A DNA stretch of 16,272 bases from Thermoanaerobaculia bacterium (GCA_044226625.1 JBGAGQ010000098.1:1-16272), one strand, 5' to 3'; counted from the first letter of the stretch, positions 3,751-15,824 are shown. Notes: generated from the sequence alone by a model not told the origin. Program-made: numbers and translations.

Positions 3751-3779
3751 AGAATAGGTCTCGGCGTTTCCGCGGTCAA
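3751..3779 (-). promoter_or_regulatory. sigma70-type promoter for gdhA (TTGACC-N17-TATTCT)
   Basis: On the minus strand, -35 TTGACC (3779-3774), a 17-bp spacer and -10 TATTCT (3756-3751). Confidence 0.6.
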
Positions 3780-3792
3780 GGGAAATCCTGCC

Positions 3793-3818
3793 TAAACCCC
3801 CTCCCGCGCTGAGACGTC
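3793..3818 (+). promoter_or_regulatory. Candidate ECF-sigma promoter for the peptide gene (TAAAC-N17-CGTC)
   Basis: AAAC at 3794-3797 and CGTC at 3815-3818, 17 nt apart, about 50 nt upstream of the ATG; matches the generic ECF AAC...CGT consensus. Confidence 0.35.
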
Positions 3819-3869
3819 GATCCTCCTTGGGGTGGGAAGGGCCCCGCTCCGATTCCGGAAGGAGAGATC

Positions 3870-4079
3870 ATGAGGAAGAAGCTCACGCTCCATCGCCAGA
3901 CGCTGCACCGACTGGACGGTCTCGACGGCATTGTGGGAGGCGCCCCGACTACGGTACCGACCCACTGCTACACCTGTGCCGTTAGTTGCCCGGCGACCTG
4001 CCTGCCGACCGCTTGCATCCCGGCCGCCTGCTCGTATCAGCTCGGCTGCGGGCTCACCGTCTCCTGCCAGATCTGTTGA
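3870..4079 (+). CDS. Putative RiPP (lanthipeptide-like) precursor peptide with double-glycine leader and Cys/Thr/Ser-rich core
   Basis: RBS AAGGAG at 3859-3864. Leader MRKKLTLHRQTLHRLDGLDGIVGG, then a 45-aa core APTTVPTHCYTCAVSCPATCLPTACIPAACSYQLGCGLTVSCQIC (9 Cys, 7 Thr, 3 Ser). It fills an otherwise empty intergenic gap and is followed by a perfect hairpin. Confidence 0.82.
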   Translation: MRKKLTLHRQTLHRLDGLDGIVGGAPTTVPTHCYTCAVSCPATCLPTACIPAACSYQLGCGLTVSCQIC

Positions 4080-4082
4080 ACA

Positions 4083-4113
4083 GACAAGGGGCGGGCGCCG
4101 CCCGCCCCTTGTC
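4083..4113. terminator. Perfect GC-rich hairpin, probable terminator between convergent genes
   Basis: GACAAGGGGCGGGC-gcc-GCCCGCCCCTTGTC, a 14-bp perfect stem starting 3 nt after the peptide stop. No clear U-tract. A second small hairpin lies at 4132-4150. Confidence 0.65.
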
Positions 4114-4160: not shown

Positions 4161-5012
4161 TCAGACCCGCTCCAACCGAACGAGCTTGCCCATCTTGCGG
4201 AATGGGCGACGGAGGGCCTCCGGCATCAGGCGCCAGGAGGCGGCGGCGAAGCGGCCGACCGGAGGCATCCGGTGCAGGCGCTCTCCTTCGACGAGCGAAT
4301 ACCGGACCTCGGCCGGTCGCCAGCCGTAGCCCGAGAAGTACCGCTCTCCCGACGACGGGGCGAACCGGAGGGGCGCCTGCTGCATGTGCTTCGACCAAGT
4401 CCGGTTCGCAAGCTTGAGCAGGAGCGGCGACGCCATGTCGAACGCCCAGGAGCGGAGGTTTCCCGCCGCGTGGAGATCCCGCGCGAGCCCCGACGCCTGC
4501 TCGGCGGAGAGGTAGGTGATCAATCCCTCGGAGAGGACGAAGACGTTCCGCCCCGCCGCGGCGACCTCGGTGAACAACGCTTTACGCGCCTCGCGATCGG
4601 CTAGATCGACCGCGCGACGAACGAGGCGGCAGAGCGGCCGCTCGCCGGCGAGCGCCGCTTCCTTCTCGGCGAGGAGCGGCGGCAGATCCGCCTCGAACCA
4701 GGGAAAGTCGGGGGGAAGCGCGAGCCGATAGGGGCGGGCGTCGAAGCCCGCCGCGAGGTTGAGCACCGCGTCGGCCCCTCGCTCGATCGCGCCGAGGATC
4801 ATCTCGTCGAACACCACGGTGCGGACCACCATCGCCCACGCCGAGTCTTCGCCGCGCGGCATCTGCCGCACGATCTGCCAGCCGCGCTCCCCCGCCAGAC
4901 GCTCGGCGAAAGGATCGCGAAACAGCGCGTCCTGCCGCGCCGTCTCCATCGCCCGGTAGGTCGCGACCCACCGGGCGGTGTCGGAGACGTTGCGGATCAG
5001 GGGCTCGGTCAC
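4161..5012 (-). CDS. SAM-dependent methyltransferase, leucine carboxyl methyltransferase (LCM)/TIGR00027-like family
   Basis: Motifs VSDTARWVATYRAMET...LFRDPFAERLAG, VRTVVFD, VLNLAAGFDARPYRL, WFEADLP, VDLAD, LSEGLITYL. GTG start overlaps the toxin stop (GTGA). Confidence 0.88.
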   Translation of the reverse strand: MTEPLIRNVSDTARWVATYRAMETARQDALFRDPFAERLAGERGWQIVRQMPRGEDSAWAMVVRTVVFDEMILGAIERGADAVLNLAAGFDARPYRLALPPDFPWFEADLPPLLAEKEAALAGERPLCRLVRRAVDLADREARKALFTEVAAAGRNVFVLSEGLITYLSAEQASGLARDLHAAGNLRSWAFDMASPLLLKLANRTWSKHMQQAPLRFAPSSGERYFSGYGWRPAEVRYSLVEGERLHRMPPVGRFAAASWRLMPEALRRPFRKMGKLVRLERV

Positions 5013-5323
5013 GGGAGGCCGGGGAGGTCCGAGAGATATCGCCCCATGTCGAGAGCACCGTGGAAAATCCCCAAGATGTCGACGTCTCCGGCCGGCCTGA
5101 GTAGATAGGCAATCCGGTAGTGGCCGTAGAGTACTACCCGAATCTCACGCTCCTCCCTTTCCTCGAGGCGATACCCGCGCTTCGGAAAGGACGAAAGAGT
5201 AGAGGCTAACCGATAGATTCCCTCGACCGTCTTTCGGGCAGCCGAGGGGTTGCTCAGCGCGATGTAGCCGTGAATATCTTCAAGCCAGCGAGCGGCCTCA
5301 TGCGTCCACCTCACCTGCCCCAT
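5009..5323 (-). CDS. Type II toxin, RelE/ParE family
   Basis: 104 aa: VRWTHEAARWLEDIHGYIA..NPSAARKTVEGIY...LSSFPKRG...IRVVLYGHYRIAY...VDILGIFHGALD, the typical ParE-like pattern. Confidence 0.88.
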   Translation of the reverse strand: MGQVRWTHEAARWLEDIHGYIALSNPSAARKTVEGIYRLASTLSSFPKRGYRLEEREEREIRVVLYGHYRIAYLLRPAGDVDILGIFHGALDMGRYLSDLPGLP

Positions 5324-13672: not shown

Positions 13673-15665
13673 TCAGCCGGCGAGGTCGGTGAGCTCCGAT
13701 TCGACCGACTCCCAGTCGGACATCAGGCCCGCAATCTTCTCGTTGAGCTGTTGCTGCTCGTTCTCGAGCTTTTTCACCTGGTCGCGCGAGGTCTTGTCGA
13801 AGAAGGTCGGATCGCAGAACAGCTCGTTGATCTCGTGGACCCGGTTCTCGGCTTTCTCGATCGCGGCGGTCAGCTCGTCGCGCCGCTTGGTGAGCTGGCG
13901 CTCGCGCTTCTCGCGCTCCTTGTCGTCGAGGCGCGGGGCCTCCTTCGCCTTCTTCTGTTGGGCACGCCGCGCGCGCAACACCGCTTCGGCGTCGAGGTGG
14001 TCGTCGCCCATCGCCTCGATGTATTCCTCGTACGTCCCCTTGTAATCGCGGATGCCGTTCGGGGTGATCTCCAGGATCCGGTTCGCGAGGCGCGAGACGA
14101 ACCAACGGTCGTGGGAGACGAAGACCAGCGTGCCGTCGTACTCCTTGAGCCCTTCGACCAACGCGTCGATCGCCTCGAGGTCGAGGTGGTTCGTCGGCTC
14201 GTCGAGCACCAGGACGTTCGGCTGGGTGACCGAAAGGCGGCAGAACGTGAGGCGTGCTGACTCGCCGCCCGAGAGGCTCCCCACCCCCTTCTTCACGTCG
14301 TCGCCCGAGAACAACACCATGCCGAGATTGCCGCGGATGAAGCCGATCGTCTCGGCGGGAACCGCCTCCCAGAGCCACGCCTCGACGCTCTGCTTGCCGG
14401 AGGCCTTGAGCTCGGCGTGATCTTGCGAGAAATAGCCCGGGTGGGTCTCGTACCCCCAGTTCACCGTGCCCGCGTCGGCGGTCACCTCGCCCACCGCGAT
14501 CTTGAGCATCGTCGACTTGCCGATCCCGTTCGGGCCGAGGATCGCGAGCCGCTCGCCGCGCTCGACGCGGAGGGTCACGTCGTTCAACACCTTCTTGGTG
14601 CCGTACGACTTCGAGATCCCCTCCATCACCAGCACTTCGCGCCCGCTCGGCCGGACCTGCTTGAACTTGAACGTCGGATACCGACGCGAGCTCTGGGGCA
14701 GGCGCTCGATCGTGATCTTCTCGATCATCTTGACCTTGCTCTGCGCCTGGCGCGCCTTGGTCGCCTTGGCCTTGAACCGGTCGATGAAGTCCTGGTGCTT
14801 GGCGATCTCCTTTTCCCGCTTCTCGATCTCGGCTTCCTTGCGCTCGCGGTTGCCGACCTTCGCCTCCGTGAACGCCTGGTAGTTGCCCGGGTAGAGGATC
14901 ATCGTCTCGTAGTCGACGTCCACGCTGTAATTGCACCTTCGCCTCCGTGAACGCCTGGTAGTTGCCCGGGTAGAGGATCATCGTCTCGTAGTCGACGTCC
15001 ACGATGTAATTGCAGACGTTGTCCAGGAACCGGTGATCGTGCGAGATCACCACCGTCGTCCCCTTGAACTCGGTGAGGAACTTTTCGAGCCATCGAATCG
15101 ACAGGATGTCCAGGTGGTTCGTCGGCTCGTCGAGCAACAGCGCGTCGGGAGACGACGCGAGCACCTGGGCGAGCAGCACGCGCAGCTTGAAGCCGCCCGA
15201 GAGCGTGGAGAGAGCGTTCCGATGAACCTCGGTCGGAATCCCCAAGCCCTCCAGGATCTCCCCCGCACGCGCCTCCAGCGTGTAGCCGTCGGAGTTGAGG
15301 ATCAACTCTTCGAGCTCGGCATAGCGCTCGTGGTCGAACTCCGACTCCGGAGCACTGAGCAGCCGCTCCTTTTCCGACATCGCCTCCCAAACCTCTTTGT
15401 TGCCCATCAGGGCCACGTCGAGGATCGGCATGTGCTCGTAGCTGAAATGGTCCTGACGCAAGACCCCGAGGCGGAGCCGCTTTGGAAGCGAAAGCGTCCC
15501 CTCGCTCGGCTGGTCCTCACCGGTCAGGATACGGAGAAACGTCGACTTCCCCGATCCGTTCGCCCCGACCAATCCATAGCGATTGCCCGGGTTGAACTGC
15601 ATCGAGACGCCGGTAAACAAAGTCTGCGGGCCAAACGACTTGCCCATTTCGGAGACGGCGATCAT
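13673..15665 (-). pseudogene. ybiT: ABC-F family ATPase (YbiT-like), frameshifted by a 79-bp tandem duplication (true lesion or assembly artefact)
   Basis: The N half (GNRYGLVGANGSGKST, LSGG, LLLDEPTNHLD, ISHDHRFLD) is in the 15665 frame and the C half (GPNGIGKST, LSGGE, LVLDEPTNHLD, VSHDR, coiled-coil tail) is in another frame. Removing 79 bp restores a single 637-aa ORF. Confidence 0.85.
14856..15013. repeat. 79-bp tandem direct duplication
   Basis: 14856-14934 and 14935-15013 are identical except C14925 vs A15004. Confidence 0.97.
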
Positions 15666-15824
15666 AGGGCCGGGGATGATAGCAGGTGCGGACGGAGGAG
15701 GCCGACCGGAGGGTAGGGCGGGCGTTTGGCGGGCGGGTTGGGATGTGCGGCAGGCGGCCGGATCGGGGGTGGGGCGGTCGATTCCGGCCGGCAGGGCACC
15801 AACGGCAAGAGCGAGGGATGGGGC

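Follow-up and report, generated by a model that had tools for sequence, protein, structure and literature searches.

A putative peptide precursor gene between gdhA and a methyltransferase gene

We examined a 69-amino acid open reading frame (ORF) at 3870-4079 on the plus strand of a stretch of DNA from a Thermoanaerobaculia bacterium (GCA_044226625.1 JBGAGQ010000098.1:1-16272). This stretch, referred to as the window, is an entire contig (C106, 16.3 kb) of a genome that we call G000. A preliminary description of the sequence had placed here a self-contained unit, consisting of a ribosome-binding site, the ORF and a hairpin, between gdhA and a methyltransferase gene. The encoded peptide was said to have a 24-residue leader ending in GG and a 45-residue core with nine cysteines, 10 serines or threonines and no D, E, K or R. 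All of the elements and all of the counts were confirmed, and the locus has the following features:

3772-3869, plus strand: 5′ region of the cassette, alignable with the orthologous locus of the related genome G002 from ∼3838 onward
3857-3866, plus strand: Shine-Dalgarno sequence GGAAGGAGAG, with the AGGAG ending 5 nt ahead of the ATG
3870-4079, plus strand: putative precursor ORF, from the ATG at 3870 to the TGA at 4077-4079, 69 amino acids
3870-3941, plus strand: leader, 24 amino acids, MRKKLTLHRQTLHRLDGLDGIVGG, with an LxLxRx5L motif and a GG end
3942-4076, plus strand: core, 45 amino acids, APTTVPTHCYTCAVSCPATCLPTACIPAACSYQLGCGLTVSCQIC
4077-4079, plus strand: stop codon TGA
4083-4113, strand not assigned: GC-rich hairpin with a perfect 14-bp stem and a 3-nt loop, beginning 4 nt past the stop codon
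2430-3779, minus strand: gdhA, of the Glu/Leu/Phe/Val dehydrogenase family (PF00208 and PF02812), outside the system
4161-5012, minus strand: LCM-type S-adenosylmethionine (SAM) methyltransferase (PF04072), probably unrelated to the peptide

The leader motif is arranged as L5-x-L7-x-R9-x5-L15, with arginine where lysine is typical, and G23 and G24 precede the core. A single histidine is the only charged residue of the core, which also includes one Gly-Cys-Gly. No sigma-70-like promoter site was found by a pattern scan upstream of the ORF on the plus strand. The hairpin folded with an energy of −32.6 kcal/mol (z = −5.4), none of 200 shuffled sequences being as stable, and in the pattern scan it was terminator-like on the minus strand only. 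Since it is located between two convergent genes it could end both, and it is likely to be a bidirectional terminator for the precursor and methyltransferase genes.

The ORF is a genuine, conserved gene

An ortholog of 69 amino acids is present in G002, one of seven congeners. The DNA of the two genes is 82% identical and there are 12 amino-acid changes, with all of the cysteines (9/9) and all of the serines and threonines (10/10) being kept. The ratio of non-synonymous to synonymous change (dN/dS) was 0.21 by the Nei-Gojobori method; within the core, there were 15.5 synonymous differences over 33.8 sites and 7.5 non-synonymous differences over 101.2 sites. The Shine-Dalgarno site is also found at the G002 ortholog, as is a hairpin at the same position, in which a G-C pair has changed to A-T. 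When the window peptide was used in a homologous-protein search, two proteins were returned: the peptide itself and an 81%-identical protein, again of 69 amino acids, that occurs on 15 public contigs. The window ORF is thus a genuine and conserved gene.

The segment common to G000 and G002 spans 3838-4113, i.e. from ∼30 nt upstream of the Shine-Dalgarno sequence to the hairpin. At the syntenic spacer between gdhA and the methyltransferase gene, no precursor was found in five of the seven congeners, and the spacer of G006 is unrelated in sequence to that of the window. Because other congeners that bear the flanks are without the precursor and the G006 spacer is unrelated, the cassette must be gained or lost as a unit. 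Comparison of 3838-4113 with the G002 and G006 loci revealed neither a repeat nor a mobile-element signature to account for its movement.

The preliminary description had proposed that expression be confirmed from RNA. One 236-nt contig from a metatranscriptome (an RNA library, run X5) does cover 3772-4006, differing from the window at eight positions, of which four are synonymous and four fall within two codons (T6K and V22T). This is a weak hint of transcription, but the contig may derive from DNA carry-over. Run X5 gave no cover of gdhA or the methyltransferase gene and carries no information on relative expression.

The leader is shared by 56 ORFs in the genome

With the window peptide alone as the query, 22 places in G000 were returned at E ≤ 10. 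A regular expression for the leader gave 41 small ORFs, and a profile built from these 41 matched 56 (E < 1e-3) among the 93,636 six-frame ORFs of the genome. The window ORF ranked second under this profile (E = 1.2e-14), and a reversed-sequence control produced no matches at E ≤ 1. An independent whole-genome search with an alignment, A1, likewise gave 56 matches. The 56 leader-sharing ORFs are spread over 33 contigs, with ten neighbouring pairs less than 3 kb apart, and 53 of them are located away from any Lan gene. The preliminary description had suspected a genome-dispersed library of precursors and had called for a leader-profile scan of the genome and its relatives; that scan bore out the suspicion, returning these paralogs and the matches in relatives described below.

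The leaders follow the consensus M-(K/R)n-KLxLx(R/K)ETLxxL...(GG/AG/GA). A Shine-Dalgarno-like GGAG, GAGG or AGGA was present at positions −20 to −4 in 50 of the 56 paralogs, compared to 18% of random 17-mers. By-eye alignment of the upstream regions showed no promoter motif common to the paralogs beyond the Shine-Dalgarno sequence.

Apart from cysteine, the paralog cores have little in common. Cleavage sites could be called for 54 of the cores. In these, cysteine accounts for 16.4% of residues and serine/threonine for 22.6%, and the number of serines and threonines was at least equal to the number of cysteines in every core (54/54). The number of cysteines was even in 25 cores and odd in 29, the window peptide having nine, so there is no even bias. 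When the same cores were aligned on their cysteines, serine/threonine was enriched at −1 (39%) and −5 (43%); the remaining offsets between −8 and +8 had 16-33%, in most cases 20-26%. These two signals may be one signal arising from (S/T)-C units that are four residues apart. Among the nearest paralogs of the window peptide is a peptide encoded next to a LanC gene on contig C4; both cores start with PTHC.

The NCBIfam model NF038153 (lant_leader_L1a, class I lanthipeptide) was matched by 16 of the 24 paralogs scanned, with a best E-value of 5.8e-6. The available text of Walker et al. (2020, PMC7268733) describes class I LanAs of Bacteroidetes as having an LxLxKx5L leader motif, often with a GG end, and a C39 protease in the cluster. 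The class I lanthipeptide-like leader recognized in the preliminary description is therefore seen both in the window peptide itself (LxLxRx5L...GG) and in the family to which it belongs. Against 1.84 billion representatives, the A1 profile matched 11,074 proteins at E ≤ 0.001. We looked up ten of the top public matches; the NCBI name of one is 'MAG: class I lanthipeptide [Acidobacteriota bacterium]' and the IMG name of one is 'natural product precursor'. The sole named genomic relative found, in a single-peptide search of genome contigs that returned one locus, was a metagenome-assembled genome of Thermoanaerobaculia.

All ORFs of at least 150 amino acids within 6 kb of 41 paralogs were clustered, and no hidden maturase was seen among them. 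The recurrent neighbours were generic, comprising ABC ATPases, FtsX-type permeases, histidine kinases and S9 peptidases. Two loci of G000 have individual arrangements. At C84:11464-17279, precursors at 15535-15693 and 17115-17279 lie on both sides of a PRMT-like methyltransferase, and genes for an ABC exporter and a divergent TauD-family dioxygenase are adjacent; the locus is possibly a small cluster that tailors peptides by hydroxylation or methylation. At C60:6504-7010, two tandem precursors are directly downstream of a 1,473-amino acid open frame (C60:7139-11557, minus strand).

LanB, LanC and a C39 exporter are encoded on other contigs

The preliminary description had supposed that the modifying enzymes would be encoded elsewhere in the genome. 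Candidates for each step were located off the contig of the window:

C93:86992-90363: LanB, the one full-length copy (PF04738, 1.7e-171; PF14028, 1.1e-67), between an ABC importer and gcvP
C4:58629-59945: first LanC, preceded by three tandem paralogs, the last of them 132 nt away
C114:7232-8530: second LanC, standing alone
C93:132017-134380: C39 ABC exporter, the only one, with C39, ABC membrane and ABC ATPase domains and an HlyD-type partner

Both LanCs are stand-alone proteins of 432-438 amino acids and each has WCYGD and CHG, the motifs that provide the zinc ligands in NisC. The three paralogs upstream of the C4 LanC gene are 132-813 nt away from it, and metallo-β-lactamase (MBL) hydrolase and 2-oxoacid dehydrogenase genes follow downstream. 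The C39 exporter is 42 kb from LanB on C93.

The leader occurs with LanB and LanC in related genomes

We compared 31 mutually kin genomes, G000 and 30 relatives. The leader profile matched 19 of these, with 38, 56, 33, 24, 16, 24 and 52 copies in the seven congeners and up to 57 in other members of the family or order. All 19 leader-positive genomes have a LanB match (E ≤ 1e-83) and a LanC match; in the 12 leader-negative genomes there were LanC matches in five and LanB matches of this strength in two. Because the genomes are kin, this association is not a statistical test. Each of the seven congeners has exactly one LanB match. In G018, which has 57 leader matches, the best LanB match (C13:217907-219915) is split over two overlapping frames covering the Pfam model from 1-399 and 392-647, which suggests a frameshift or an assembly error.

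In three relatives, the same leader is found within clusters, confirmed by ORF and profile scans. That of G021 (contig C7) has an exporter, six precursors, LanC and LanB; that of G019 (C13) has two LanCs, two precursors and LanB; and that of G024 (C127) has a precursor, LanC and LanB, followed at a distance by an exporter. The LanB of G000 is 44% identical to the clustered LanB of G024 over its full length (1,128 aligned positions), and the C4 LanC is 41% identical to the LanC of G024. Together with the LanC gene that follows three paralogs in G000 itself, these clusters support, at the genomic level, the processing in trans that had been suggested for the window peptide.

In an even sample of the phylum, examined through the best 32 candidates per genome, 10 of 201 genomes had a leader match at E ≤ 1e-4 and large numbers of leaders were seen only in G000, G019 and G140. 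One of the ten, G173, is an unpublished genome.

The leader motif is predicted to contact LanB

Residues 1-760 of LanB (alignment of four sequences) were folded together with the precursor (alignment A1). The complex scored 0.63 (0.63, 0.66 and 0.63 in the individual runs), compared to 0.01 for the best of three controls. Among 80 solved complexes 58 had reached this mark, and among 110 mismatched pairs two had. The runs shared at least 22% of contacts and the partner had a predicted local distance difference test score (pLDDT) of at least 34. In the predicted interface, peptide residues 3-17, i.e. the conserved leader motif, face LanB residues 197-221 and 241-265. Since structures of NisB and MibB are in the PDB, the score may reflect likeness to solved LanB structures, and thereby to a known leader-binding mode.

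Proposed processing in trans by one enzyme set

We consider that the window ORF encodes a class I lanthipeptide precursor (LanA) that is processed in trans, with a probability of about 0.7. Most likely, the ∼56 scattered look-alikes are all made into lanthipeptides by a single enzyme set encoded elsewhere in the genome. The leader family and the enzymes are present in G000, and both adjacency and co-occurrence link the one to the other; that the window peptide is a substrate of LanB and LanC, together with its ring pattern and its biological role, is what we infer. The core chemistry fits lanthipeptide formation, because serine/threonine is never outnumbered by cysteine and an even number of cysteines is not favoured.

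In the proposed mechanism, the leader KKLTLHRQTLHRL...GG would be the handle that docks on the leader-binding region of the single LanB. This enzyme would turn serines and threonines of the core into dehydro-residues via glutamyl-tRNA, and one or both of the stand-alone LanCs would add cysteine thiols to give (methyl)lanthionine rings. The single C39 exporter, with its HlyD-type partner, would then cleave after the GG and export the product. One enzyme set would in this way serve ∼56 precursors that share a leader and have hypervariable cores, forming a natural combinatorial library. The most economical account would be the break-up of a class I lanthipeptide system, clustered versions of which persist in relatives. 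Within the genus, LanB, the LanCs and the exporter would have become separate, and tens of self-contained cassettes would be interspersed among housekeeping genes, with turnover from species to species.

A wider proposition is that an equivalent of the prochlorosin system, built from class I enzymes, operates in an order of Acidobacteriota for which Thermoanaerobaculia is the nearest named relative. In each genome, the precursors of 16 to 57 cassettes, with hypervariable cores, would be matured by an unclustered set of one LanB, two or three LanCs and one C39 exporter. Each cassette would have its own Shine-Dalgarno sequence and terminator and be gained and lost between congeners. Taken jointly, these claims have in our estimate an even chance of being correct. 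Were they to hold, the LanB/LanC pair would be unusually substrate tolerant, the products would carry up to nine thioethers in 45 residues, and natural combinatorial biosynthesis of lanthipeptides would have had a second, independent origin.

Several observations weigh against processing of the window peptide by LanB and LanC. As the preliminary description had stated, the scanned ORFs of the window include no LanB, LanC, LanM, radical SAM, YcaO or C39 gene; the contig covers 3.9 kb on one side of the precursor and 12.2 kb on the other. The 60.8-kb G002 contig that carries the ortholog also has no Lan gene, and the LanB of G000 adjoins no precursor, the nearest being 68 kb away. LanB presence is not specific to the leader, because leader-negative G009 and G023 carry it. 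Serine/threonine at −1 and −5 of cysteine disagrees with nisin-type ring spacings. A gene with Radical_SAM, SPASM and PCP_red domains is situated 175 nt upstream of one paralog (C17:5762-5983), and three of the 24 scanned paralogs weakly match TIGR04149, a model of leaders targeted by radical SAM enzymes (best E = 0.0031). Gene counts in G000 may also be off, because the assembly consists of 133 contigs with 97.9% completeness and 5.5% contamination. Finally, the window peptide itself has no NCBIfam or Pfam match even at E ≤ 10, NF038153 and TIGR04149 included. It misses NF038153 because RQTL replaces KETL/RETL and the N-terminus is short, and the genome's own profile ties it to the paralogs that do match. 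For annotation, 'putative class I lanthipeptide precursor' is the name that the window ORF should be given, although it has no match to the NCBIfam model.

Alternative explanations

The peptide might be exported and cut at the GG by the C39 transporter while untouched by LanB and LanC, acting as an unmodified, disulfide-bonded or metal-binding peptide of a bacteriocin-like or signalling kind. A GG-ended leader, a single C39 exporter and the lack of a modifying enzyme nearby would all suit such a peptide. C39 matches were found in 29 of the 31 genomes, which means that export does not need Lan enzymes and also that C39 does not discriminate between the explanations. However, nine is an odd number of cysteines, it is conserved in the ortholog, and the family as a whole is divided between even and odd; serine/threonine keeps pace with cysteine in all 54 cores. 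Each of the 19 leader-positive genomes also has LanB and LanC, the leader lies within LanB/LanC clusters of relatives, and the predicted LanB contact falls on the conserved leader motif. We regard export alone as unlikely. It is more improbable still that the ORF is non-functional, i.e. a chance ORF or a decaying copy; the absence of a Pfam or NCBIfam match and the empty syntenic spacer in five of seven congeners would agree with this, but the dN/dS ratio of 0.21, the conservation of every cysteine, serine and threonine, the Shine-Dalgarno sequence and hairpin, and the profile match with its clean reversed-sequence control leave it scarcely credible.

Modification by other enzymes was also considered. 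As a substrate of a radical SAM/SPASM maturase, the peptide would acquire sactionine- or ranthipeptide-type thioethers, as in the TIGR04149 family. The weak TIGR04149 matches and the gene upstream of the C17 paralog point in this direction, a Cys-rich core is a fitting substrate for such an enzyme, and the available text of PMC11118758 reports that precursors of this kind, when beside class I enzymes, are misclassified as radical SAM targets. However, the C17 enzyme has six full-length orthologs in congeners (G001-G004, G006 and G007; 84-87% identity) with no precursor in the fetched flanks, and an 87-residue fragment at 81% identity in G005, so that among the seven genus loci examined the precursor is adjacent in G000 only. 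Outside the genus, searches with the C17 enzyme found it in none of 11 leader-positive genomes and in five of 12 leader-negative ones. Since its distribution does not follow the leader family, the adjacency looks like random insertion of a cassette, and we rejected the C17 enzyme as the maturase on its distribution among genomes. The other three of the four SPASM matches in G000 are on contigs without paralogs. Maturation by a radical SAM enzyme is consequently very unlikely. At the C17 locus (C17:4217-5983), the radical SAM gene is downstream of a ParA/NUBPL-type ATPase gene and the PCP_red domain is C-terminal.

Slightly less probable again is conversion of the cysteines to thiazol(in)es, or some other modification, by a non-Lan enzyme such as a GMC oxidoreductase of the ThaO/TheO type or a YcaO protein. 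According to the available text of PMC13083261, GMC-oxidoreductase thiazoles occur in Cys-rich, lanthipeptide-like precursors of Thermoanaerobaculia. G000 has two GMC C-terminal domain matches (C58:167754 and C104:3978) and one YcaO (C5), and the window core has its Gly-Cys-Gly. However, the GMC and YcaO genes are remote from the paralogs (nearest ∼47 kb), the GGC motif reported for those systems is not in the window core, and the reported systems are class II (LanM). The LanM domain (PF13575, DUF4135) had no match in G000, a search that was equally silent in every control genome. GMC oxidoreductase, YcaO and LanM were therefore rejected as maturases, being unlinked to the paralogs or not found.

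Relation to known systems

The closest precedents for the proposed class I precursor processed in trans are the NF038153-type precursors of Bacteroidota, e.g. the pinensins and Ped15 of Pedobacter lusitanus. These have the same leader motif and GG end, a C39 exporter, separate LanB and LanC, and cores rich in cysteine and serine/threonine. In contrast to the Bacteroidota examples, the host here belongs to an Acidobacteriota lineage, the ∼56 precursors are dispersed, as are the genes for LanB, LanC and the exporter themselves. Neither the leader type nor the peptide class is new, and both are in use for annotation.

In their organization, the precursors resemble the prochlorosins of marine picocyanobacteria (ProcA/ProcM), for which the available texts of PMC7268733, PMC12328550 and PMC10783134 describe one enzyme set, tens of precursors with a conserved leader and hypervariable cores, a GG end to the leader and many precursors far from the enzyme. 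Prochlorosins are class II, however, with a single LanM and Nif11-type leaders, whereas here there are a separate class I dehydratase and cyclase and a different leader family. The leaders of the radical SAM precursors of TIGR04149 (GG_sam_targ_CFB) resemble those of the window family in their K-rich start, hydrophobic repeat and final GG, but no radical SAM enzyme co-varies with that family, which tracks LanB and LanC. ThaA/ThaM/ThaO and TheA/TheO (Nature 2026; available text of PMC13083261) come from the same class as the named relative and have lanthipeptide-type precursors with Cys-rich cores. They differ in being clustered and class II, with a GMC oxidoreductase making thiazoles; in G000 the GMC genes are unlinked.

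Our literature searches did not turn up a dispersed class I library of tens of precursors with unclustered LanB, LanC and exporter, subscription journals and supplements lying outside the scope of the search, and its novelty is therefore provisional. If LanB and LanC do process the ∼56 cores, they would be a class I counterpart of ProcM, a naturally promiscuous pair that would be useful for constrained-peptide libraries, and the peptides would make up a large, as yet untapped collection of ring-dense natural products in a phylum that is poorly represented in culture. The RODEO survey in the available text of PMC7268733 took in seven genes on each side of a LanC domain and would miss dispersed precursors, because 53 of the 56 are away from Lan genes. 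The case exposes a blind spot of cluster-based genome mining.

Other genes of the window

DNA matches to the methyltransferase gene were found in G001, G003, G004 and G006, with a weaker match (69-71%) in G007, and no precursor is present at those loci. We rejected the methyltransferase as a tailoring enzyme: G001, G003, G004 and G006 have it but lack the precursor, and the two are separated by a further gene in G002. The further window ORFs scanned encode an ABC ATPase, GntR and LysR regulators, ParE, ProRS, a TPR protein, a 3-hydroxyacyl-CoA dehydrogenase, a DUF6526 protein, an amino-acid permease, a major facilitator superfamily (MFS) transporter and an ABC protein. The ParE toxin domain ORF (5009-5323, minus strand; 104 amino acids; PF05016, E = 8.5e-13) has an end that overlaps the start of the methyltransferase gene.

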